Source: an uncultured Actinomycetes bacterium
GTDB taxonomy: Bacteria > Actinomycetota > Actinomycetes > S36-B12 > CAIYMF01
DNA: 32,000 nucleotides
Reading direction: 5' to 3'
Assembly (NCBI GenBank): GCA_963843975.1
Contig: CAWJMG010000001.1
Location: 780,001-812,000 of the forward strand
This document shows positions 4,853-25,585 of this stretch, piece after piece (position 1 is the stretch's first letter; each line of letters begins with the position of its first letter). The notes beneath the pieces were generated by a model. The model searched no databases, had not been told where the DNA came from, and saw only the letters and a program-made list of their open reading frames with translations. The translations under genes and the position numbers were made by a program.

Positions 4853-6375
4853 GTCGTGAGCTCCATTCGGCTGGCGAGTTCGAAGATCTTTCGGGCGCTG
4901 ATCTCGTCGGGCTCGAGGACGCCCTGTACGCGGCCCTTGGCCATGACGGCGATCCGGTCGCTCATTCCGATGAGCTCCTCCATGTCGGAGGAGATGAGCA
5001 GGACCGCAACCCCTGACCGTGCGACGTCGTCGATCACCCGGTAGATCTCATGCCGCGCACCTACGTCCACCCCGCGCGTGGGCTCGTCGAGGATCAGCAC
5101 GCGCCGAGGACTGAGCATCCACTTCGCCAGGACGACCTTCTGCTGGTTGCCGCCGCTGAGCGTCCCGACGGACTGACGGTGCGATCGGGCTCGTATCCCG
5201 AAGTCGGCGATCGCCCTCCGCGCACGATCGGCCAGATCGCGGAGAGAGATCACTCCGCCGCGGCTCCAACGAGGGAGGTTGGGCAGGGAGAGGTTCTTCT
5301 CCAGGTCGAACCCTAGGACGAGCCCGTCCTGCTTGCGGTCCTCCGGGACAAACCCGAGACCGGCCTCCACCGCGTCGCGCGGCGCTCGGATCTGCTGCTC
5401 CAAACCGTCGACGCAGATCGAGCCTTTGCTCCTTGGGTCGCATCCGAAGATGAGGCGCGCCACCTCGGTGCGGCCCGCCCCTACCAAGCCGCCAAGGCCG
5501 AGGATTTCGCCGGACCGGACCGTGAGTGCGACGTCCTCGACCATCCCGCCCCAGAGCCCTGAGACCTCCAGTACGGGCGCACCGGGCGACTCCCGCTTGT
5601 CCGGGAACAAGGCGGTGAGCTCACGGCCGATCATCGCGTGTACCACCGCGTCACGTGTGACGGCGCTGTCGTGGGCGTTGAACTCCGACACCTTGGCACC
5701 GTCACGCATCACCACGATTCGGTCCGCGACCGAGAACGCCTCGGCGATCCGGTGCGTAGTGATGACGATCGCGTACCCGGCGCCGCGCAGCCTGCGGATC
5801 AACGCCAGCAGCGCCTGCGCCTGCTCCTCGGGCAACGAGCTCGTCGGCTCGTCCATGAGCAGCACCTTGACCTCGTGCTGGGCCAGCGACTTGGCGATCT
5901 CGACCAGCTGCTGCTCCGCGATCGACAGGCGACGCACCAGGGTCCGCGGGTCGGCGAGCGAACCGACCTCGTCCAGGGCCTCGCGCGCCTGCCGGATGCT
6001 CGTGCTCCGGTCGACGACGACACCGAGCGCTCCCTTCGGCTCACGACCGAGAGCGATGTTCTCCGAGATCGACAGGTTCCCCACCAGGTTCAGCTCCTGG
6101 TGCACCATCGATACGCCGTGCCGCCGCGCATCCGCCACGGACTCGATCGTCACGGGCTCGGAGCCCATGACGATCTCGGCGTGGTCGGCTGAGTAGACGC
6201 CGGCTAGTACCTTCATGAGCGACGACTTGCCGGCGCCGTTCTCACCCAGGAGCGCCACGACCTCGCCCCCACGCAGGTCGATGTCGACGTCCTTCACGAC
6301 CCGGACTCCGTTGAAGGCGACCGTCACCCCGCGAGCGCTGAGGACCACGGGGAGGTCGAGGTCAGTCTGCGTCAT
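4849..6375 (-). CDS. Sugar ABC transporter ATP-binding protein (duplicated ABC domains)
   Basis: 508 aa and intact. Walker A motifs GENGAGKSS and GLVGAGRTE; signature motifs LSIAEQQ and LSGGNQQK. Confidence 0.95.
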   Translation of the reverse strand: MTQTDLDLPVVLSARGVTVAFNGVRVVKDVDIDLRGGEVVALLGENGAGKSSLMKVLAGVYSADHAEIVMGSEPVTIESVADARRHGVSMVHQELNLVGNLSISENIALGREPKGALGVVVDRSTSIRQAREALDEVGSLADPRTLVRRLSIAEQQLVEIAKSLAQHEVKVLLMDEPTSSLPEEQAQALLALIRRLRGAGYAIVITTHRIAEAFSVADRIVVMRDGAKVSEFNAHDSAVTRDAVVHAMIGRELTALFPDKRESPGAPVLEVSGLWGGMVEDVALTVRSGEILGLGGLVGAGRTEVARLIFGCDPRSKGSICVDGLEQQIRAPRDAVEAGLGFVPEDRKQDGLVLGFDLEKNLSLPNLPRWSRGGVISLRDLADRARRAIADFGIRARSHRQSVGTLSGGNQQKVVLAKWMLSPRRVLILDEPTRGVDVGARHEIYRVIDDVARSGVAVLLISSDMEELIGMSDRIAVMAKGRVQGVLEPDEISARKIFELASRMELTT

Positions 6376-7370
6376 ACGTCACGCCGACCTGTCGCCGGAT
6401 CTCGTCCATGATCCGCATCGTCTTCAGGGTGAGCGCGTGAGGGACGACGGGGCTCTCGAGCTTCTCCTGCAGCCACGCATCGAGCCACCTCGAGCGCTTG
6501 GAAGCGCCAGCCGAGACCGCCGTCCACCGAACCCGAGAAGTCGGTGAAATCAGCACCGCCGGCCGGGTTCCCTTCACCGAACTTCACGACGCGCAGATCC
6601 GTCGGGATCATGTAGTTGTAGCCGAGCTCGATACGCCCTGCGGTGCCGTTGATGCTGGCGCGGTTCGGCAGCTCGGAGGACAGCGACGTGGTGACCACGC
6701 CGTGACGTCCCGCCTCGTCTCGGATCACCGCAGAGGACTCGGCATCGACACCGGTCGACGTCAAGGTGCCCAGCGCCTTGATCTCGAGGTCGTCGCCGAG
6801 GACGCCGGCGACCAGAGCCACCGCGTAGATGCCGAGGTCGAGGAGCGCCCCACCGCCGAGCGCCCGGTCGTACAGACGGTGCTCAGGGTGGGTGGGGTCG
6901 AAGCGCAGGCCATGGTCGGCGATGACCGAGACGACGTCACCGATCACGCCCGAGTCGAGAAGCCTGCGCACCTCGACCATGTGGGGCAGGAACCGCGACC
7001 ACATCCCCTCCATGATGAACACGCCGCTTTCACGAGCGAGGCTGAACAGTGCCTCAGCATCGGCAGCGTTGAGGGTGAACGGCTTCTCCACCAGGACGGG
7101 CTTGCCGGCACGGATCGCGAGCTCGGCGACACGGCGGTGCTCGCTGTGCGGAACGGCGACGTAGACGAAGTCGACGTCCGGGTCAGCGACCAGCTCCTCA
7201 TACGAGCCGTAGGCGGCTGCGGCACCCTGGGCGTCGGCGAAGGCTTTGGCCCTGTCGATGGACCGAGATCCGACCGCAGTGATTCTGGCGGTGTCCGTGA
7301 GGCTGAGATCCTGGGCGAACATCCCCGCGATAAAGCCGGTGCCGAGAACACCCCAGCGCTGGTCGGACAT
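6362..7370 (-). pseudogene. Gfo/Idh/MocA-family oxidoreductase, reading frame broken by +1 near 6457-6473
   Basis: Start ATG 7370 (MSDQRWGVLGTGFIAGMF...EKPF...) with AAGGAG 7 nt upstream. After ...FQALEVARCVAAGE the annotated frame turns into Arg/Pro-rich sequence and stops at 6372. The family-typical C-terminus LESPVVPHALTLKTMRIMDEIRRQVGVTY lies in the +1 frame (track ORF 6362..6577). Confidence 0.75.
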
Positions 7371-11711: not shown

Positions 11712-12951
11712 CGTCGCGCGCCTCCGCGAGCTGGGGCTCGATCCGCGCGGCCAGCGCCGGGCGGATCGACCACTCCTGCACGAGCCGGTCGTAGTCGGCC
11801 AGGTCGGCCGCGGTCGCCGGTGCCCCGGTGCGGACGGCGCGCAGCAGCAGGTTGCGCGGCGTGTGCTGGTCGCTCACGAACTCCACGGTCTCGACGCGAT
11901 AGCCGACGATCCGCAGCAGGGACGCGCGGATGCCGTCGGTGAGCACGTCGACCATCCGCTCGCGCAGCAGTCCGTAGCGGGCGAACAGGCCGAACGGCGA
12001 CGGCGCGGAGGCCTTGGTCACCTGGGTCTGCAGGTCGTGGTGGCAGCAGGGCGCGGCGAGCACGACCGGCGACTGCCACCGCACCGCGCGGGCCAGGGCG
12101 TCGTCCGTGGCGGTGTCGCACGCGTGCAGCGCGATCACGACGTCGGCGCGTGGCTCGTCCGCGGCGTCGGCGATCGTCGCCGCCTCGAAGGTGAGCCCGT
12201 CCGCCCACCCGAGGCGCTCGGCCAGCGCGGTGTTGCGCTCGCGGAACGACTCGCGCAGGTCGACGCCGTGCACCACCACGGGGATGCCGCGCACGCGCGC
12301 GAGCCAGACGTACGCCCCTACGGTGAGGTAGGCGTTGCCGCAGCCGAGATCGACCACGCGCCAGGGGTTCTCAGGCGTCGGCTCGGGCAGCGCGCGAGCG
12401 ACGCGGGCATCCTCGACCGCGCTCTCGAGCAGCTTCACGAACTGCTCGACCTGGCGGTACTTGTCCATCTTGGTCGGCTTGAGCCTGCCGAGGGAGTCGG
12501 CGACCCCCACAGCCATGAGGTACGCCTTGACGTCGGGGTGCTCGACGTCGAGCAGCCGCGGCTTCACGCGGTCGTGCGCGACGGGCACGTCCTCGACGGG
12601 CTCGACGCGGGGCGCGCGGTGCACCTGCGCGTCGCCCTTCTTGGTGATGCGCACCTGCACGACCTCGGTGCCGGTCTCGACGTGCCAGTTGCCGAAGCCC
12701 TGCTCGAGCAGGGCGTCGACGACGGCCGGCGCGGCGTCGGAGTCATGGTTGGCCGTGTGCGCCTGGCGCTCGTCGTACGTGACGACCTGCAGGCGGCGTC
12801 CGGCCTTGATGCCGACCGGTCGCAGCTCGGCGCGCTTCCACTCGAGAGGGACGCCGCGACGTCGACCGGCCGCCACCGCACGCACGAGGGTGGAGTCGTC
12901 GAGCAGCAGCGCCCGCACCTCGGCGCGAACGTCGGGCCAGGGAGCGGCCAC
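11698..12951 (-). CDS. Class I SAM-dependent methyltransferase-like protein
   Basis: 417 aa with a VVDLGCGNAYLT glycine-rich SAM motif. GTG start immediately follows the upstream stop. Confidence 0.75.
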   Translation of the reverse strand: MAAPWPDVRAEVRALLLDDSTLVRAVAAGRRRGVPLEWKRAELRPVGIKAGRRLQVVTYDERQAHTANHDSDAAPAVVDALLEQGFGNWHVETGTEVVQVRITKKGDAQVHRAPRVEPVEDVPVAHDRVKPRLLDVEHPDVKAYLMAVGVADSLGRLKPTKMDKYRQVEQFVKLLESAVEDARVARALPEPTPENPWRVVDLGCGNAYLTVGAYVWLARVRGIPVVVHGVDLRESFRERNTALAERLGWADGLTFEAATIADAADEPRADVVIALHACDTATDDALARAVRWQSPVVLAAPCCHHDLQTQVTKASAPSPFGLFARYGLLRERMVDVLTDGIRASLLRIVGYRVETVEFVSDQHTPRNLLLRAVRTGAPATAADLADYDRLVQEWSIRPALAARIEPQLAEARDGARA

Positions 12952-13728
12952 CTACGAGGTCGCCATCAGGAGTCGCTCGCGCAGCAGCCGCAGCGCGGTC
13001 TCGTCACCGGTGGTCGCGATGCCGTGCTCGCCGGGGCGGCCCCACAGGTGCAGCACCATCCCGGACGCCGGCCCGGCGACGAGCGCGTCGGCCTCGCCTG
13101 CACCGCCGACCACCTCGACGCTCGTCGGGTGCAGCGTGACGGTCCACGAGTGGTCGTCCGCGGCCACGAGCACGCGCTGGCCCGTGGCGCCCGGCTGCGC
13201 CGGCTCGTCGCCCCAGTCCCACGTCAGCCAGCCCAGCAGCTCGTCCACGCCGTCCGCCGCGAGGTCGCCGGGCACGTCGCCCGCGCCGTCGGGGCCGTCG
13301 GTGGCCGACTCGGCGTCCCAGCGGTGCACGGTGGTCTCCTGCGCCATCCGCCGGTGCCAGAAGCCGACGGTCTGCTCCTGCGGCCACCACGCGTAGGTCG
13401 GCGCGTCCTCGGGCCGTGCGGCCAGGAGGTCGCGCAGCTCGGCGTACGCCGCCCGGATCTCGTCGCGCACGTCGGCACCATCGGCCACCTCGCCCCAGGC
13501 GTCGGTGCGCTTCGGCGGTGCGGCATCGGTCTTCAGCACCACGATCTTGTGGCGGTAGACGCCCAGCACGTGCGACAGCAGCGCCGAGACGTCCCAGCCC
13601 GGGCAGCCGGGCACCTCGGCCGCCAGGTCGACGGACGCCTCGAGCATCGCCTCGAAGTCGGCGTCGAGGTGGGCGAGGTACTGCTCCGTGGTCAGGCGGG
13701 TGCCGTCGAGGCTCGGTTGCGGGGTCAC
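12952..13728 (-). CDS. DinB-like / mycothiol-dependent maleylpyruvate isomerase family protein
   Basis: 258 aa. N-terminal DinB-like helix bundle pattern (YLAHLDADFEAMLE...HVLGVYRH...HRRMAQETTVHRWD). GTG start with AGGA 8 nt upstream. Confidence 0.75.
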   Translation of the reverse strand: MTPQPSLDGTRLTTEQYLAHLDADFEAMLEASVDLAAEVPGCPGWDVSALLSHVLGVYRHKIVVLKTDAAPPKRTDAWGEVADGADVRDEIRAAYAELRDLLAARPEDAPTYAWWPQEQTVGFWHRRMAQETTVHRWDAESATDGPDGAGDVPGDLAADGVDELLGWLTWDWGDEPAQPGATGQRVLVAADDHSWTVTLHPTSVEVVGGAGEADALVAGPASGMVLHLWGRPGEHGIATTGDETALRLLRERLLMATS

Positions 13729-18730: not shown

Positions 18731-19828
18731 GTGGCCGGCGACAAGCGCGACGACGTCGATCTCGCACTCCGTGCCGCGATCGCCGCGGTTGCTCCCGGCA
18801 CCGTCCTGCGCGACGGGCTCGAGCGCATCCTGCGCGGCCGCACCGGCGGTCTCGTCGTCCTCGGCCACGACCGCATCATCGAGACGATGGCCTCGGGCGG
18901 CTTCTCCCTCGACATCGAGTTCTCCGCCCAGCGCCTGCGCGAGCTCGCGAAGATGGACGGCGCGGTCATCTGCGACCCCGACGCGACGCGTCTGCTGCGT
19001 GCCGCCGTCCAGCTGCTGCCGGACCCGAGCATCCCCACCGACGAGCAGGGCACCCGCCACCGCACCGCCGACCGCGTGTCCAAGCAGGCCGGCTTCCCCG
19101 TCGTCAGCGTCAGCAAGTCGATGAACACCATCGCGCTGTACGTCGCCGGCCGCCGGCACGTGCTCGAGGACTCCGGCCAGATCCTGTCGCGCGCCAACCA
19201 GGCGCTCGCGACCCTGGAGCGCTACAAGATGCGCCTTGACGAGGTCAGCGGCACGCTCTCGGCGCTCGAGATCGAGGACCTGGTGACGATCCGCGACGTC
19301 TGCGCCGTCGCCCAGCGCCTCGAGATGGTGCGCCGCATCTCGGCCGAGATCTCCGACTACCTCGTCGAGCTCGGCACCGACGGCCGCCTGCTGTCCCTGC
19401 AGCTCATCGAGCTCATCGCCGGCGTCGAGACCGACCGCCAGCTCGTGATCCGTGACTACCTCCCCGCCTCGGCGGGGAAGAAGGCTGCCCGCACTCTCGA
19501 GGCCGCGCTCGACGACCTCGACGCGCTCACCGCCACCGAGATGCTCGACCTCACGACGGTCGCGCGTGCGATCGGCTTCCCGACCGCCCCCGAGGTGCTC
19601 GACCAGGCCGTGAGCCCGCGCGGCTTCCGCCTGCTCGCCCGCGTGCCGCGCCTGCCCGAGGTCGTGCTCGACCGCCTCGTGGACCACTTCGGCGGGCTGC
19701 AGCGCCTGCTGGCCGCGAGCATCGACGACCTGCAGGCCGTCGAGGGCGTCGGCGAGACGCGTGCGCGGTCCATCCGCGAGGGCCTCAGCCGGCTCGCGGA
19801 GTCGAGCATCCTCGAGCGCTACGTCTGA
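18731..19828 (+). CDS. disA: DNA integrity scanning protein DisA (diadenylate cyclase)
   Basis: 365 aa with DAC-domain motifs DGAVI and GTRHRTA and a C-terminal HhH region. GTG start with AGGGGG upstream. Confidence 0.95.
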   Translation: MAGDKRDDVDLALRAAIAAVAPGTVLRDGLERILRGRTGGLVVLGHDRIIETMASGGFSLDIEFSAQRLRELAKMDGAVICDPDATRLLRAAVQLLPDPSIPTDEQGTRHRTADRVSKQAGFPVVSVSKSMNTIALYVAGRRHVLEDSGQILSRANQALATLERYKMRLDEVSGTLSALEIEDLVTIRDVCAVAQRLEMVRRISAEISDYLVELGTDGRLLSLQLIELIAGVETDRQLVIRDYLPASAGKKAARTLEAALDDLDALTATEMLDLTTVARAIGFPTAPEVLDQAVSPRGFRLLARVPRLPEVVLDRLVDHFGGLQRLLAASIDDLQAVEGVGETRARSIREGLSRLAESSILERYV

Positions 19829-19863: not shown

Positions 19864-20421
19864 TCAGGCGGTGACCGGGTGGTCGTCCGGGGCTGGCACC
19901 TGGCCCCAGGCGACGTCGCGGATGCCGAGCAGACTCTCCACCACGCCGCGGCGGTCAGCCGCCGCCAGCGACGACACGAGGGCCAGCAGCACGAGCCCTA
20001 CGCCGAGCGCGAGGCCGAGGCCGTCGTGCCGGATCGAGAGGCAGGCCAGGAGCACCAGGGCCAGGAGCGCCGGCCGCGCAGCGCGGCGCGGCCAGGCCGC
20101 CACCTCGCCCGAGCCGTCGAGCACGCGCAGCTCGGCCCAGGCCCACACGAGCCCGCTGCCGCCGCCCGCGGTGGCCATCACGGTGCCCATGAGCACGGAC
20201 AGTCCGAGGCAGACCCAGGACGCCCACGAGTCCCACTGGACTCCGAGCGGGTTGGACGGGTCCGGCCGCATCCCGACCGGTGCGATGACCAGCATCGACA
20301 CGACGAGCGTGCCGACGAACACGAGCGCGAAGACCGCGGCGGAGGCCGCCCACGCGAACGCGATGGCGCCGCGAGACGGGACGACGATGCCGACGACGGT
20401 GTGACCGGACGTGCCAGCCAT
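19864..20421 (-). CDS. Hypothetical polytopic membrane protein (about 4 TM; weak RDD-family resemblance)
   Basis: Preferred start ATG 20421 (MAGTSGHTVVGIVV...) with GGGGGAA upstream. Four hydrophobic segments. The C-terminus ...AADRRGVVESLLGIRDV recalls RDD proteins. Confidence 0.6.
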   Translation of the reverse strand: MAGTSGHTVVGIVVPSRGAIAFAWAASAAVFALVFVGTLVVSMLVIAPVGMRPDPSNPLGVQWDSWASWVCLGLSVLMGTVMATAGGGSGLVWAWAELRVLDGSGEVAAWPRRAARPALLALVLLACLSIRHDGLGLALGVGLVLLALVSSLAAADRRGVVESLLGIRDVAWGQVPAPDDHPVTA

Positions 20422-20500
20422 GATGGTTCCCCCTAGCCCGGGCCGCACGGCCCACATGCCGAGGATGCCCTCACGAGGGCTGTCCCGGAGGCCTTTCGGC

Positions 20501-21118
20501 TCAGGACTCGCGGCCGAGCACCGGCTCGCCGAGCCGCGGCTCGTCCCGGCGCAGGGCCTCGGCGCCGATGGAACGGGCATCGGGCAGCGCCACCACGACG
20601 ACCGGGTCTCCTCCGCCGACGGGCCGCACGACGCCACGTGTCCAGGACGGCAGCGTGTCAGGAACGTCCTCGGTCTCGGGCACCAGTTCGCCCGCGGCCG
20701 TCACGGTCACGACGCGATCGACCACGAGGCCGGCGTCGCGCCGGTACACCGGCAGCAGCACGTCGCCCGGACGCGTCCTGTCGGTGCGGAGGTCCACGAC
20801 GGGCACGGAGCGGCCGCGTACGTCGACCAGGGCCACCACGAGGCCGTAGCCCGCGCGCTCGTGGTCGGGCAGCAGCGTGAGCTGCGGCGCCCGCGTGATC
20901 TCGCGGACGTCGCCCACCGCCACGGCGAACGTGGTGCCGCCGACCGTGAACAGCACGTGCCCGCCGTCCTCGCTGACCGGCGTCACCGGCGCCTCGGGAG
21001 CCGCAGTCGCAGGAGCGGGAGCAGCGGGAGACGCGGTCTCGTCGGTCGCCGGTGCAGCGGGGGCCGGCCGTCGGGACGGCGACGGTGCGGGCGCGGCGGT
21101 GAACAGGGACACGGTCAT
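20501..21118 (-). CDS. cheW: CheW-like coupling protein with an Ala/Pro-rich N-terminal extension
   Basis: ATG 21118 overlaps the cheR stop (ATGA), with GAGGAGGG upstream. CheW-domain pattern: HVLFTVGGTTFAVAVGDVREI...LVDVRGRSVPVVDLR...AGLVVDRV. Confidence 0.8.
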   Translation of the reverse strand: MTVSLFTAAPAPSPSRRPAPAAPATDETASPAAPAPATAAPEAPVTPVSEDGGHVLFTVGGTTFAVAVGDVREITRAPQLTLLPDHERAGYGLVVALVDVRGRSVPVVDLRTDRTRPGDVLLPVYRRDAGLVVDRVVTVTAAGELVPETEDVPDTLPSWTRGVVRPVGGGDPVVVVALPDARSIGAEALRRDEPRLGEPVLGRES

Positions 21119-22515
21119 CCCTCCTCGGCGACCCGCCGGTCGCACTCGTCGGCGAGCCGGCGGCACAGGGTCACGAGCTGGGCGACGTCGCACCCGTCGA
21201 GCAGGTCGGCGAGGTCGGACTCCGGCGTCCCCGGGAGGGCGACGGCGGCAGCGCGGTACTCGCGCGCGGCGGCGGCGTGCTCGCCGCAGCGCGACAGCGC
21301 ACCGGCGAGGGCGAAGCGGGCGTGCCCGAGCTCGGGCGAGAGGTAGACGGCCTTGCGCAGCGCGACCAGCGATCCGGCGTCGTCACCCACGGTCGCGCGG
21401 GCACGGCCCTCGACCAGGTACGCGTCGACCTCGAACGGGCTGGCCGTGGCGGCCGACGCGGCCAGTCGCGCGGCCTCGCCGTACCTCGCCTGCTCCATCG
21501 CCTCGCGGGCGAGGCGCAGCAGGTCGGTGGCGAGATCGGGGTCGGGAACGTGGTCGGCGTCGTCGCGCGTGTGCGGGCGCGGGGGTGCGACGCGAGGCGG
21601 CGGCAACGGTCGGCGCGGGCGCGGCTCCGGCACCGGCTCGGGCTCCGGCACGCGGACGACGGGCACGTCCTTGCGGTAGGCGAATGCGTCGCCGAGGGTC
21701 ACGAGCGTGAACGAGTCGGTCACCTGCCAGAGCGTCTCGGCATGGCCGAGCACGAGGTAGCCGCCTGCACCGAGGACGCCGTGGAAGCGGCCCACGAGGT
21801 CGCGGGTGGTGTCGCGCGCGAAGTAGATGGTGACGTTGCGGCACACCACGAGGTCGACCTCGCCGTGCTCGAACGGAGGCGGGTCGGTGACGAGGTTGTG
21901 CAGCCGTACGTCGACGAGCCGGCGCGCCTCGGGGCTCACCTCGTACGTGCCGCCGACGCCGGGGGTGAAGAAGCGCGCGAGCCGCTCGGGCTCGGTGAGC
22001 GACAGCGACCGGCCGGAGTAGCGGCCGCGCAGCGTCAGGCTCACGGCCGACGACGACAGGTCGGTCGCGAGGATGCGGATCTCCGGTGATTCGGGCAGCG
22101 TCTCGGCCACCTCGAGAGCGAGCATCGCGAGGGAGTACGGCTCCTCGCCGCTCGAGCAGCCGGCGCTCCAGATCGTCAGGGCGCGGCCGCGTGCCACCGC
22201 CCGGCGCATGAGCTCGGGCAGCAGGCGGTGCCGCAGCGCGTGCATCTGCGGCGGGTTCCGGAAGAAGTGCGTCTCGGGGATGGTCACCTCGTCGAGCAGC
22301 CGCTGCCGCTCGTCGGCGCCCGACGGCGCGCTGATCCGAGCGAGGTAGGCGCCGAGGTCGGCAGCCCCCGTGGCGGCGATGCGGTCCGCGACGATCCCGG
22401 CCAGCGCGGGACGGCGGCTGCGGTCGAACACGAGACCGGCGGTGCGCGCGAGGAACTCCGCGAGGGCGAGGTGCTCGGAGTCGGTGAGCTCGCGGCTGAG
22501 GGCGACGGAGGTCAT
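21115..22515 (-). CDS. cheR: CheR-type protein-glutamate O-methyltransferase fused to a C-terminal TPR-like domain
   Basis: 466 aa: THFFRNP, IWSAGCSSGEEPYSLAM, ATDLS, VVCRNVTIYF. A Pro-rich linker (PEPEPVPEPRPRRPLPPP) is followed by about 150 aa of helical Ala/Leu/Arg repeats. Confidence 0.9.
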   Translation of the reverse strand: MTSVALSRELTDSEHLALAEFLARTAGLVFDRSRRPALAGIVADRIAATGAADLGAYLARISAPSGADERQRLLDEVTIPETHFFRNPPQMHALRHRLLPELMRRAVARGRALTIWSAGCSSGEEPYSLAMLALEVAETLPESPEIRILATDLSSSAVSLTLRGRYSGRSLSLTEPERLARFFTPGVGGTYEVSPEARRLVDVRLHNLVTDPPPFEHGEVDLVVCRNVTIYFARDTTRDLVGRFHGVLGAGGYLVLGHAETLWQVTDSFTLVTLGDAFAYRKDVPVVRVPEPEPVPEPRPRRPLPPPRVAPPRPHTRDDADHVPDPDLATDLLRLAREAMEQARYGEAARLAASAATASPFEVDAYLVEGRARATVGDDAGSLVALRKAVYLSPELGHARFALAGALSRCGEHAAAAREYRAAAVALPGTPESDLADLLDGCDVAQLVTLCRRLADECDRRVAEEG

Positions 22516-22516
22516 C

Positions 22517-23605
22517 TCACACCGCCTCGGGCACGGCGAGGCGGGCGACGGCGTCGATCACGGACGCAGCGATCTGGGGCAGCGGCAGCTCGACGGTGGC
22601 GGCCTCGAGCGCGATGGCGGCGGCCGGCATCCCCCAGACCGCGCTGCTGTCCTCGTCCTGCGCGATGGTGAAGGCACCGGCCCGGCGCATGGCGAGCAGT
22701 CCGGCCGCACCATCGCGGCCCATCCCCGTGAGCAGCACCCCGACGGCGCGCTCGCGGCAGACCTCGGCGACCGACCGGAAGGTGCGGTCGACCTCTGGTA
22801 CGTGGAGCTGGGCCGGGCGCGACGGCTCGACGCGCAGGCGGAGCGCGTTCTCGACGACGAGGTTGCCGTCGCTGGGGGCGACGACGACGTGCCCCGGACG
22901 CAGCCGGTCGCCCGACAGCGCGACGGACACAGGGAGGTCGACGACGCCGTCGAGCCAGCCGGCGAGGCCCTCGACGAAGCCCTCGGCCATGTGCTGCACG
23001 ACGACGATGGGCGCGGGAAGGTCCGGGGGCAGTGCGCCGAGGAGCGCGGCGAGCGCGGGCGGTCCGCCCGTGGACGCACCGATCACGACGACCGGCGTAC
23101 GACGGGACCCGGTGTGGTCGACGGGCCGCGGCGCCACGCCGTCCGCGGCGAGGCCGCGCTCGCGCAGCTTGCCGCGCGGGTGGGTGATGACGCGGACGCG
23201 GCTCGCGACGCTGAGGTGGCGGCCGAGCGCGCGGGAGAACGGGCCCGGCCCGAGCTGCTCGGAGGTCGGCGCGACGACGTCGACAGCGCCGGCCGCGAGC
23301 GCCACGTCGGCCTGCTGGGAGGCGGCGCCGGTGAGCACGATGGGGGTGGGGCAGCGGGCCATCACGCGCTCGACGACCTCGAGGCCGCCGACGCCCAGGG
23401 CGAGGTCGAGGAGCACCGTGTCCGGCGACAGCGTTCCGACCAGGACGACGGCGTCCTCGGCGGTCTTGGCCGCGCCGACGACCTCCACGCCCGTGAGCTG
23501 CAGGAGGTGGGTGAGGCGCGCGAGGCGCACGTGGGTGCCCGCCACGACGACGGTCGAGACCCGGCGCTCCAGGGCCCCGGGCGCGCCGGTGTCGGACGCG
23601 GTCAT
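22517..23605 (-). CDS. cheB: CheB-type protein-glutamate methylesterase with a degenerate receiver domain
   Basis: Catalytic motifs are intact: IGASTGGP (Ser), VVVQHM (His), LTGMGRDGA (Asp). ATG 23605 is preferred (GGGAGGGGG upstream); the track ORF extends to 23680. The stop is 1 nt before the cheR ATG. Confidence 0.9.
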   Translation of the reverse strand: MTASDTGAPGALERRVSTVVVAGTHVRLARLTHLLQLTGVEVVGAAKTAEDAVVLVGTLSPDTVLLDLALGVGGLEVVERVMARCPTPIVLTGAASQQADVALAAGAVDVVAPTSEQLGPGPFSRALGRHLSVASRVRVITHPRGKLRERGLAADGVAPRPVDHTGSRRTPVVVIGASTGGPPALAALLGALPPDLPAPIVVVQHMAEGFVEGLAGWLDGVVDLPVSVALSGDRLRPGHVVVAPSDGNLVVENALRLRVEPSRPAQLHVPEVDRTFRSVAEVCRERAVGVLLTGMGRDGAAGLLAMRRAGAFTIAQDEDSSAVWGMPAAAIALEAATVELPLPQIAASVIDAVARLAVPEAV

Positions 23606-23723
23606 CGACACGCGACCCCCTCCCGGCTCCGTGGTGGCAGCGCAGGCCCTCGGCCTGACGCCTTCTCTCCCGGGAGGCATCGTCAGGAAGCGGCGGGTCC
23701 TTGACCCGTTCGGGGGAACGAGA

Positions 23724-23978
23724 TCAGGCGGCGGAGCGGCGCACGTGGGCGCCCAGGGCCGCGCTGCACGAGCGGTAGGACAGCGCGGAGAAGCTCGATC
23801 CGGCCGACAGGATCGAGCACAGGCTGAGCACGGAGCCGATGGAGCCGACGGACAGCGCCGACCCGATCGACCCGATCGAGAGCACCGACCCGGTCGAGGC
23901 GATCGACAGCACGGATCCGGTGGAGGCGATCGACAGGAACGACCGCTCCGAGCGCCAGGACCTGCTGCTGTGCGCCAT
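23724..23978 (-). CDS. Candidate 84-aa serine-periodic (Sxx)n repeat protein
   Basis: MAHSSRSWRSERSFLSIASTGSVLSIASTGSVLSIGSIGSALSVGSIGSVLSLCSILSAGSSFSALSYRSCSAALGAHVRRSAA. 82 of 84 codons end in G/C. The ATG is 5 nt after the upstream stop and the ORF fills the gap to cheB. The first two 27-nt units differ only at 4 synonymous third positions. An antisense frame sharing the third position is also open, hence the moderate confidence. Confidence 0.45.
   Translation of the reverse strand: MAHSSRSWRSERSFLSIASTGSVLSIASTGSVLSIGSIGSALSVGSIGSVLSLCSILSAGSSFSALSYRSCSAALGAHVRRSAA
23763..23969 (-). repeat. 9-nt (TCN-NNN-NNN) periodicity containing degenerate 27-nt tandem units
   Basis: There are 23 consecutive triplet groups starting with a Ser codon. 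Four clear 27-nt units span 23826-23933, and CGATCG recurs at 9- and 27-nt spacing. Confidence 0.8.
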
Positions 23979-23983
23979 GGGCG

Positions 23984-24628
23984 TCAGGCCGCCGCGGTCA
24001 GCGCGAAGACCGACGCGTCGGAGGTGATCGCGCCGTTGCGCCCCACGAGCTTGTAGGTGCCCGCCTCGGCGATCGGCTGGTTGGCAGGGCAGCCCTTCTG
24101 GGACAGACGCCCGAGCCACGTGACGCCGACGGAGTAGCTCTCGCCCGGACCGAGCACGACGACGGACGACGACCCGCCCTCGTTGCAGTCGTCCGACGAC
24201 CAGACCTGCGTGGAGCCCGAGGAGATGATCAGCTCGTTGGCCTTGGCCCCGACGTCGCGCTTGCACGCGGACTTCGAGGTGTTCTGGATCCGCATCCGCA
24301 GCTTCGGGGTGGCACCGACCTGGTACGACGCGGCATCGGTCGACGCCGTCACCTGGATCTGGGAGTCCTTGCAGGCCCCCGTGCCGGACGACGTGCTCGC
24401 CGAGGGCTTGGCCGTGGGCGACGCGGAGGGCTTGTCGGTGGCGCTCTCTGTCGGTGCCGGAGTGGTGCTCTGGTCGGGCGTCGGGGTGGCGGTCGAGCTG
24501 CCCCCGCCGCTGAAAAACAGCGCGCGGATACCCAGCACGAGGGCGACCACGACGGCCAGGACGAGGAGTCGGCGTACCCAGTAGACGCCGGACCCCTTCG
24601 GACCCACCGGCTGCAGCAGCGTGCTCAC
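23984..24628 (-). CDS. Conserved membrane-anchored protein with an STP linker and a Cys-containing C-terminal domain (Rv3587c-like position)
   Basis: C-terminal part of track ORF 23984..25150, with a GTG 24628 start (VSTLLQPVGPKGSGVYWVRRLLVLAVVVALVLG...). It is divergent from mutY, as Rv3587c is in M. tuberculosis. Confidence 0.7.
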   Translation of the reverse strand: MSTLLQPVGPKGSGVYWVRRLLVLAVVVALVLGIRALFFSGGGSSTATPTPDQSTTPAPTESATDKPSASPTAKPSASTSSGTGACKDSQIQVTASTDAASYQVGATPKLRMRIQNTSKSACKRDVGAKANELIISSGSTQVWSSDDCNEGGSSSVVVLGPGESYSVGVTWLGRLSQKGCPANQPIAEAGTYKLVGRNGAITSDASVFALTAAA

Positions 24629-24688: not shown

Positions 24689-25585
24689 ATGCCGTCCTCG
24701 CACCTGCACGCTCCGTTGCTGGCCTGGTACTCCGCGTCCGCACGCGACCTGCCGTGGCGCGCCCCCGACCGCACCCCGTGGGGCGTCCTCGTGAGCGAGG
24801 TGATGCTCCAGCAGACCCCGGTCGACCGCGTGCTGCCGGTGTGGCAGGCGTGGATGGCGCAGTGGCCGACGCCCGCCGCCCTCGCGGCCGAGACGCCGGG
24901 CGAGGTCGTGCGGGCGTGGGGCCGGCTCGGCTATCCGCGCCGTGCTCTGCGGCTGCACGAGGCCGCCAACGACATCGTGCTGCGGTTCGGCGGGCTCGTG
25001 CCCGACGACCCGGACCAGCTGCGCTCGCTCCCCGGGGTCGGCGACTACACCGCGGCGGCGCTGGCGTCGTTCGCCTTCGGGCGGCGGGCGGTCGTGCTCG
25101 ACACCAACGTGCGGCGGGTGCTCGCCCGGCTGCTCACGGGCGCCGAGCACCCGCGGCCGACCATCAACGCGGCCGAGCGGGCGCTCGCGGCGTCCGTGCT
25201 GCCCGACCTCGACGGCGAGGCCGCGCTCTGGTCGGTGGCGGTCATGGAGCTCGGCGCGCTCGTGTGCACGTCGTCGTCGCCGCGCTGCGACGCGTGCCCG
25301 GTGGCGGCATCGTGCACCTGGGTCGCGCTCGGCCGGCCGCCGTACGACGGGCCCGAGCGCACGGTGCAGAAGTTCGCCGGGACCGACCGGCAGGTGCGCG
25401 GCCGGATCATGGCGGTGCTGCGCGAGGCTCCGGGCGCGGTCGACAAGGTGCTGCTCGACGCCGTCTGGGACGACGCCGTGCAGCGCGAGCGTGCGCTCGA
25501 CGGCCTCGTGGCAGACGGGCTCGTCGAAGTGCTCGACGCCGGCCGCTACCGCCTGCCCGGCGTCGGTGGAACGATCGACGCATGA
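24689..25585 (+). CDS. mutY: A/G-specific adenine glycosylase MutY
   Basis: 298 aa: W..VSE.MLQQT, the HhH-GPD motif LPGVGDYTAAA and the Fe-S cluster cysteines C..SSPRCDACP....C. Confidence 0.9.
   Translation: MPSSHLHAPLLAWYSASARDLPWRAPDRTPWGVLVSEVMLQQTPVDRVLPVWQAWMAQWPTPAALAAETPGEVVRAWGRLGYPRRALRLHEAANDIVLRFGGLVPDDPDQLRSLPGVGDYTAAALASFAFGRRAVVLDTNVRRVLARLLTGAEHPRPTINAAERALAASVLPDLDGEAALWSVAVMELGALVCTSSSPRCDACPVAASCTWVALGRPPYDGPERTVQKFAGTDRQVRGRIMAVLREAPGAVDKVLLDAVWDDAVQRERALDGLVADGLVEVLDAGRYRLPGVGGTIDA

Follow-up and report, generated by a model that had tools for sequence, protein, structure and literature searches.

A conserved cheB-cheR-cheW trio between mutY and disA-radA in a mostly uncultured actinobacterial clade, with a degenerate CheB receiver and a candidate WhiG-type promoter

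We analysed a 32-kb stretch of DNA from a high-GC actinobacterium (GC ~73%; this whole stretch is called the window below), in which three chemosensory-type genes, cheB, cheR and cheW, lie together on the minus strand between mutY and the disA-radA pair. In this trio the receiver domain of CheB has lost most of its phosphorylation residues, CheR carries a C-terminal tetratricopeptide repeat (TPR) domain, and a motif of the sigma-28/WhiG type stands before cheB. The reading that we favour, to which we give about an even chance, is that the trio is the split-off adaptation and coupling half of a pathway of the alternative cellular function (ACF) type, that it works independently of a kinase, and that a receptor of the methyl-accepting chemotaxis protein (MCP) type encoded elsewhere in the genome is its most likely substrate.

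The initial annotation of this DNA had stated that CheA, MCP and CheY are not encoded in the 32 kb, and our Pfam scans agree: the other open reading frames (ORFs) supported by GC content at third codon positions (GC3) gave no HATPase, Hpt, MCPsignal or further receiver domain. When the survey was extended to the window plus 89 related loci, with flanks of up to 10 kb on each side, neither a second CheW-like (CheA-P5) domain nor a CheY-like receiver other than that of CheB was found. An MCP gene was present near the trio in two of these loci only, L059 and L065, both from metagenome-assembled genomes (MAGs) of Acidothermaceae. The L059 gene (17694-19172, plus strand) is Pfam-confirmed, lies ~6 kb from cheW and beyond radA, and encodes 492 residues, in which a hydrophobic, probably membrane-embedded segment at the N-terminus and a short MCPsignal domain are followed by a C-terminal part of ~190 residues with no Pfam match; its counterpart in L065 is at ~12796-13149.

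The conservation of the trio was examined in a scan in which each GTDB species was represented by one genome, and 422 relatives were found; the best 80 of the 422, nearly all MAGs, form our locus set. The order mutY, (anchored protein), cheB-cheR-cheW, disA-radA was found by tblastn in nearly all 80 loci, with CheR identities as low as 45%, and recurs in several metagenome contigs; contigs whose CheR homologues are 89%, 66% and 52% identical to that of the window likewise have the trio between mutY and disA-radA. The neighbourhood is thus kept in relatives, a check on which the initial annotation had made its proposal depend. The nearest CheR homologues are metagenomic, under the labels Nanopelagicales, Actinomycetales or Frankiales, and the only cultured carrier among the 80 loci is Longivirga aurantiaca (Sporichthyaceae; CheR identity 91%). 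A CheW-like ORF was recovered in 6 of the 7 complete loci in which tblastn had missed it, leaving L066, a Frankiaceae MAG, as the sole apparent exception; an unrelated ORF of 377 residues there follows cheR directly (~5588-6733), in the place of cheW. Unrelated genes amounting to 2-9 kb lie between cheW and disA in L004, L006/L033, L015, L042, L058, L061 and L067, those identified being genes for a TetR regulator, a sulfatase, an Na/H exchanger and acyl-CoA metabolism; nowhere do such genes break up cheB-cheR-cheW.

Reading frames of the trio are intact in nearly all 80 species-level loci. Pairwise ratios of nonsynonymous to synonymous substitution rates (dN/dS) against close relatives were 0.07-0.14 for cheR, 0.13-0.15 for cheB and 0.13-0.22 for cheW, while the flanking genes gave 0.17-0.19 (mutY) and 0.09-0.12 (radA); one value of 1.8, for CheB against L010, was excluded as an artefact of ORF extraction at that locus. 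All three genes are under purifying selection, and the trio has stood as a separate unit at this site since before the split between the Acidothermaceae/Frankiaceae-like and the Sporichthyales/'Nanopelagicales'-like lineages. The initial annotation had regarded these genes as an insertion into conserved synteny. They form, rather, an ancient block inherited vertically in two deep clades, and the search for traces of mobile elements gave no GC anomaly and flanking repeats at chance level only.

CheB is a confident member of its family in Pfam (CheB_methylest, PF01339, 4e-59), and its receiver gives a weak Response_reg match of 31 bits. In our alignment, for which the reference was E. coli CheB, the Ser-His-Asp esterase triad is invariant across all CheB sequences. 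In the receiver of the window, the acidic DD pair is replaced by AG, the Ser/Thr position falls in a gap and the Lys is missing (VDVVAPT), while the equivalent of D56 is kept. The window shares this degenerate type with ~60 other loci, which have AG, AD, GD, GG or AA for the pair, the Ser/Thr gap and no Lys, again with the phospho-Asp equivalent retained. A canonical receiver occurs in 21 loci, of which 18 (Frankiaceae and 'Mycobacteriales' MAGs) have DD...D...S...K and 3 (Acidothermaceae) have ED...D...T...R. On a neighbour-joining tree of CheR, the loci with the degenerate receiver form one monophyletic clade, sister to the canonical clade, and the phosphorylation pocket therefore appears to have been lost once, in the ancestor of the window's clade. 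The receiver domain itself persisted after this loss, as did the esterase triad, CheR and CheW, and the degenerate receiver has a dN/dS of 0.11-0.14, against 0.09-0.10 for the catalytic domain of CheB. We infer that CheB of the window's lineage is not gated by canonical phosphotransfer and may be called 'kinase-blind'. The initial annotation had considered the catalytic motifs intact in all three proteins; this is correct for the CheB triad and for the S-adenosylmethionine (AdoMet) motifs of CheR, but does not extend to the CheB receiver, where DD has become AG and the Lys is gone. Neither the receiver degeneracy nor the promoter motif described below had been mentioned there.

CheR is recognized by Pfam PF01739 (3.8e-49; 167 bits against a cut-off of 27). 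Its nearest solved structure is P. aeruginosa CheR1 (1e-40 with the sequence, 7e-54 with a family profile), and the family-profile alignment to the structures 1AF7 and 5XLX spans the N-terminal and catalytic domains. The motifs ETHFFRN, WSAGCSxGEE and CRNVTIYF and the AdoMet columns are invariant in an alignment of 12 sequences. An exact-sequence lookup of the window CheR found it not on record. The TPR domain, at approximately residues 326-430, matches consensus TPR structures with E 1.4e-9 for the single sequence and 1e-53 for the family profile; the Pfam models TPR_16 and TPR_14 detect it weakly in the window (E ~0.006), and homologues pass. Fusions of CheR to TPR have been assigned to ACF pathways (PMC3447774, Munoz-Martinez et al. 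2012), for which a C-terminal TPR on CheR serves as a mark, and the window CheR has this feature. As another possible trait of the window's clade we considered the equivalent of Arg53 in helix alpha-2 of E. coli CheR; the position is unconserved in both clades and hence uninformative, and was not used.

CheW passes its Pfam cut-off (PF01584, 9.5e-10; 38.7 bits against 23.5), and a search of PDB with the window's CheW sequence gave no match. In an AlphaFold2 model, the mean pLDDT (predicted local distance difference test) is 74 and exceeds 80 in the core, and residues 1-52 are modelled as coil with low confidence, which agrees with a disordered stretch. The top 18 PDB matches found by Foldseek with this model were all CheW or CheA-P5 domains, with TM-scores of up to 0.70 on the target, so that the window CheW has, as modelled, the canonical CheW fold. 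The most conserved CheW motif, V/L-R-G...P-V-V-D-L-R, is intact. When E. coli CheW was used as query, CheWs of the canonical clade scored best, and most of those in the subclade to which the window belongs, its own CheW among them, were not detected. The CheWs of this subclade have a conserved N-terminal tip, MSLFTAAP, on a variable disordered Pro/Ala-rich linker, and some have in addition a C-terminal DEPRLG; more distant CheWs of the family are compact (~136-140 residues) and have neither peptide. Both peptides might serve for docking, the CheR TPR domain being one conceivable partner. CheW normally bridges an MCP and CheA, and neither partner was found locally for the CheW of the window.

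The promoter motif first became apparent as a conserved block among variable spacers when the upstream regions of cheB from close relatives were aligned. Its extended form, CTCAAG[G/C]-N14-GACGA[C/T], was found upstream of cheB in both clades, divergent loci included, and matches elsewhere in 3 Mb on both strands were scattered and occurred at about the rate of shuffled sequence. The WhiG consensus of actinobacteria is, according to a 2026 preprint, T(A/C)AA-N16-GCCGATAA or CTCA-N16-17-GCCGAACT (PMC12871210). Under a rule based on it (T(A/C)AA-N16-GCCGA with CGA fixed, at most one mismatch in positions 1-2 of the -10 element, and a distance of up to 200 bp from the start codon), a match was present in 69 of the 80 loci, and the matches clustered 140-200 nt upstream of the codons for the receiver 'DD'; the chance expectation per 330 nt is 0.035 for the WhiG2-type and 0.061 for the WhiG1-type rule. 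In the window the motif is TCAA-N16-GACGA (23704-23680, minus strand), which is the sole intergenic match to TMAA-N16-GNCGA in the 32 kb. The ATG at 23680, with which the longest cheB frame begins, sits within the -10 element, and GTG 23611 and ATG 23605 are alternatives downstream. Given this position, and the gene calls of 362 residues in relatives with 89% identity, one of these two later codons is more likely to be the true start, and the motif would then lie 69-75 nt upstream of it. Since the motif is located between the upstream Ser-repeat ORF and cheB, the three che genes, perhaps together with the membrane-protein gene that follows, probably form a separate transcription unit, which a sigma factor of the WhiG/FliA type may transcribe from a predicted start near 23670 (minus strand). 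An Rfam scan gave no family and no riboswitch upstream of cheB, and a simple scan gave no sigma-70 promoter and no intrinsic terminator.

These data bear first on whether the trio is a functionless, decaying remnant of a lost chemosensory system, a view that the initial annotation had already argued against and that we regard as effectively refuted. The receiver of CheB is degenerate, CheB and CheR stay under NCBIfam cut-offs and the Pfam match of CheW is modest, all of which decay might produce. Yet the frames are intact and dN/dS for the trio (0.07-0.22) is similar to that of mutY and radA; the esterase triad is invariant and the degenerate receiver is itself conserved; and a conserved promoter motif and tight translational coupling have been kept. 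The coupling is seen at both junctions of the trio: the cheB stop (TGA, 22519-22517) is separated by 1 base from the cheR ATG (22515-22513), and the cheR stop (TGA, 21117-21115) and the cheW ATG (21118-21116) overlap as ATGA.

Promoters of the sigma-28 type are classically the mark of late flagellar and chemotaxis genes, and the trio might accordingly serve ordinary chemotaxis, that is, a flagellar F-class system whose cheA, cheY and mcp lie in a flagellar cluster elsewhere in the genome. The nearest cultured relative, Longivirga, belongs to the Sporichthyaceae, a family that includes the motile Sporichthya, and Acidothermus, an apparent carrier of the trio, is scored as flagellated and chemotactic. 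We nevertheless consider this explanation quite unlikely. The CheR-TPR fusion is an ACF mark and not a flagellar one (PMC3447774). For Acidothermus cellulolyticus 11B, a 2023 survey of flagella and chemosensory genes in actinobacteria has both an F5 and an ACF system: CheB, CheR and CheW of the ACF system are the consecutive proteins WP_011719060, 61 and 62 (order B-R-W), its CheA (WP_011720708) and another CheW are located elsewhere, and the F5 set is complete and separate, with its own CheB and CheR beside CheA (PMC10746217 Table S3). In actinobacterial F5 systems B and R stay in the cheA cluster, and a CheB receiver that cannot be phosphorylated would break the canonical feedback. We infer, from the same arrangement between mutY and disA-radA in Acidothermaceae MAG loci, that the trio of the window is probably the orthologue of the split Acidothermus module. 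The initial annotation had named a cheA cluster elsewhere in the genome as the finding that would speak against an orphan module; for Acidothermus this is what the survey reports, namely an ACF-class trio whose CheA is encoded at a different place (PMC10746217 Table S3).

Six co-directional ORFs occupy the minus strand between disA (18731-19828, plus strand) and mutY (24689-25585, plus strand), and they and the two che junctions are seen in the sequence as the initial annotation had described them (Table 1). In the order of transcription they encode the anchored protein, the 84-codon Ser-rich repeat ORF, CheB, CheR, CheW and the protein with about four hydrophobic segments. For the last of these and for the 84-codon ORF, neither Pfam nor NCBIfam gave a family. 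By tblastn the membrane protein was found only in the closest relatives (L001-3, L010-12 and L017; dN/dS 0.30-0.50), and it is outside the conserved core. The Ser-repeat ORF contains a tandem repeat at 23827-23944 (period 27, 4.4 copies) with units such as GSVLSIAST and GSIGSALSV, and has homologues only in the same loci and L047 (dN/dS 0.17-0.27). Changes of its Ser codons from one family to the other (TCN, AGY) in L017 and L047 favour this strand and frame, over an antisense shadow ORF, as the coding one. Antisense ORFs with GC3 >0.9 lie at 23779-24027 and 24138-24584 on the plus strand, opposite the Ser-repeat ORF and the anchored-protein gene; they are probably not real genes, the pattern being typical for high-GC genomes. 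For the anchored protein, Pfam gave a sub-threshold DUF4232 match alone and neither PDB nor NCBIfam gave a match, and its earlier label as Rv3587c-like was not confirmed. It is present in many loci and missing in others (e.g., L008/9, L030-32, L037, L039, L042, L048 and L055), and is a part of the background synteny, not of the che module.

Table 1. Features of the che trio and its minus-strand neighbours, in coordinates of the window
Feature	Position	Strand	Basis or remark
Candidate promoter motif of sigma-28/WhiG type, upstream of cheB	23677..23704	-	-35 TCAA (23704-23701), 16-nt spacer, -10 GACGA(TGC) (23684-23677)
cheB: degenerate receiver, linker, methylesterase/deamidase domain	22517..23611	-	Pfam; longest ORF extends to 23680
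cheR with C-terminal TPR domain after a Pro/Arg-rich linker	21115..22515	-	Pfam CheR; TPR structure matches
cheW: disordered Pro/Ala-rich N-terminal extension of ~52 residues, then CheW-like domain	20501..21118	-	Pfam; fold
Membrane protein with about four hydrophobic segments, lineage-specific, downstream of cheW	19864..20421	-	No family match
84-codon Ser/Gly/Leu/Ile-rich repeat ORF, upstream of the promoter motif	23724..23978	-	9-residue units; 27-nt tandem repeat
N-terminally anchored, Thr/Pro-rich secreted or anchored protein, divergent from mutY	23984..24628	-	Sub-threshold DUF4232

The neighbours had been suggested as methylation targets of the trio. They are unlikely substrates, because they vary among loci in the way just described while the trio is near-universal; moreover, the repeat peptide contains 1 Glu and 0 Gln. 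DisA and RadA were also considered as functional partners and were rejected, since adjacency was the sole basis for them and this adjacency belongs to the background synteny of Actinobacteria.

Several observations weigh against our favoured reading. Within 10 kb of the trio, the window's clade showed neither a receptor nor a kinase nor a response regulator, and the multidomain response regulator or hybrid CheA that is a hallmark of ACF systems was not found in the cluster or its 10-kb flanks. Orthologues of the L059 MCP (~70 clusters) apparently belong to Acidothermaceae-like lineages only, which is a weak negative for the window's clade. Since CheW of the window's subclade has diverged and gained an N-terminal extension, its partners could have changed. 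The probable ACF assignment has as its basis the TPR hallmark together with a published table, which concerns a presumed orthologue, and the promoter is a candidate proposed from a motif match. CheB and CheR, finally, score below NCBIfam subfamily and equivalog cut-offs (CheB: NF009206, 279 against 342; NF001965, 257 against 293; CheR: NF007902, 105.8 against 435); both are divergent members of their families.

Some of these points can be counted in favour of the proposal made from the initial annotation, namely a reversible switch without kinase and receptor, in which Glu methylation or Gln deamidation acts on a new, non-MCP protein, with CheW and the TPR domain as adaptors. The missing CheA, MCP and CheY in the window and across the flanks of its clade, the apparent restriction of the Acidothermaceae MCP, the strong divergence of the subclade CheW with its conserved N-terminal peptide on a disordered linker, and a receiver that lost its phospho-residues once and was then kept under selection can all be read in this way. 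We judge the proposal rather unlikely on the following grounds. In known systems MCP is the one partner common to CheR, CheB and CheW, and these three have been retained together here, with the CheW fold and its most conserved motif intact; the sister clade has a canonical receiver, and the Acidothermus trio is tabulated with a CheA elsewhere. The neighbouring targets that had been suggested are not co-conserved with the trio, and the absence of partners covers just ~20 kb per genome.

According to the reading that we favour, that of a split-off ACF-type half acting on a remote receptor, a WhiG/FliA-type sigma factor would drive the operon, and CheW would dock on an MCP-type coiled-coil receptor at its tip, the gene for this receptor lying elsewhere in the genome. 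Glu residues of the receptor would be methylated by CheR-TPR and demethylated by CheB, deamidation of Gln being possible too. CheB would be free of gating by phosphotransfer from CheA; it might be constitutively active, or protein contacts made through the pseudo-receiver might set its activity. A bolder version, which we think fairly improbable, is that a mostly uncultured clade keeps the pseudo-receiver CheB, CheR-TPR and CheW as a free-standing switch under WhiG control, with no CheA, possibly no MCP, and a new class of substrate.

Published descriptions of the trio, its synteny, the pseudo-receiver or the promoter were not found in the literature on orphan actinobacterial che genes, on Longivirga or on systems without CheA, a survey of CheW domains included. 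Chemosensory adaptation enzymes are understood almost wholly as accessories of CheA-MCP arrays, and the clade with the pseudo-receiver amounts to a natural experiment on the role that CheB, CheR-TPR and CheW keep without kinase feedback, through a deep diversification. The sigma-28-type motif would link an ACF-type module to the WhiG regulon, which in many Actinomycetota is reported to be controlled by cyclic di-GMP (preprint PMC12871210). The cultured carrier, Longivirga aurantiaca, makes the question testable.

The trio can be compared with several known systems. WhiG and FliA regulons of the sigma-28 family in Actinomycetota (PMC12871210; PMC8325347) are predicted, in the case of WhiG, to include chemotaxis genes (PMC12871210), and the window motif fits the search rule derived from them, although most cheB loci have A instead of C at position 2 of the -10 element; the lineages studied here are unmentioned in the main text of PMC12871210. 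With CheB of E. coli and Salmonella the window protein has in common the two-domain build and the Ser-His-Asp triad, but it has a pseudo-receiver without the Mg-binding Asp pair, with a gap at Ser/Thr and no Lys. The Wsp system of Pseudomonas, in which WspC is a CheR-TPR, WspF a CheB and WspB/D are CheWs, likewise combines a CheR bearing a short C-terminal TPR domain with CheB and CheW alongside, and, as in Wsp and other ACF systems, the neighbourhood of the trio has no link to flagellar genes. Unlike these systems, the window cluster contains no MCP, CheA or multidomain response regulator, its CheB receiver is not canonically phosphorylatable, and a sigma-28/WhiG-type motif precedes the operon. 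The ACF genes of Acidothermus have the same B-R-W order and are set apart from the ACF CheA, the Acidothermaceae MAGs having also the same placement between mutY and disA-radA. The two differ in that the Acidothermaceae CheB receiver retains the ED pair, Thr and Arg, which that of the window does not, that the Acidothermaceae loci have no promoter motif under the search rule used, and that an MCP gene stands ~6 kb away in L059 and L065 and none in the window.

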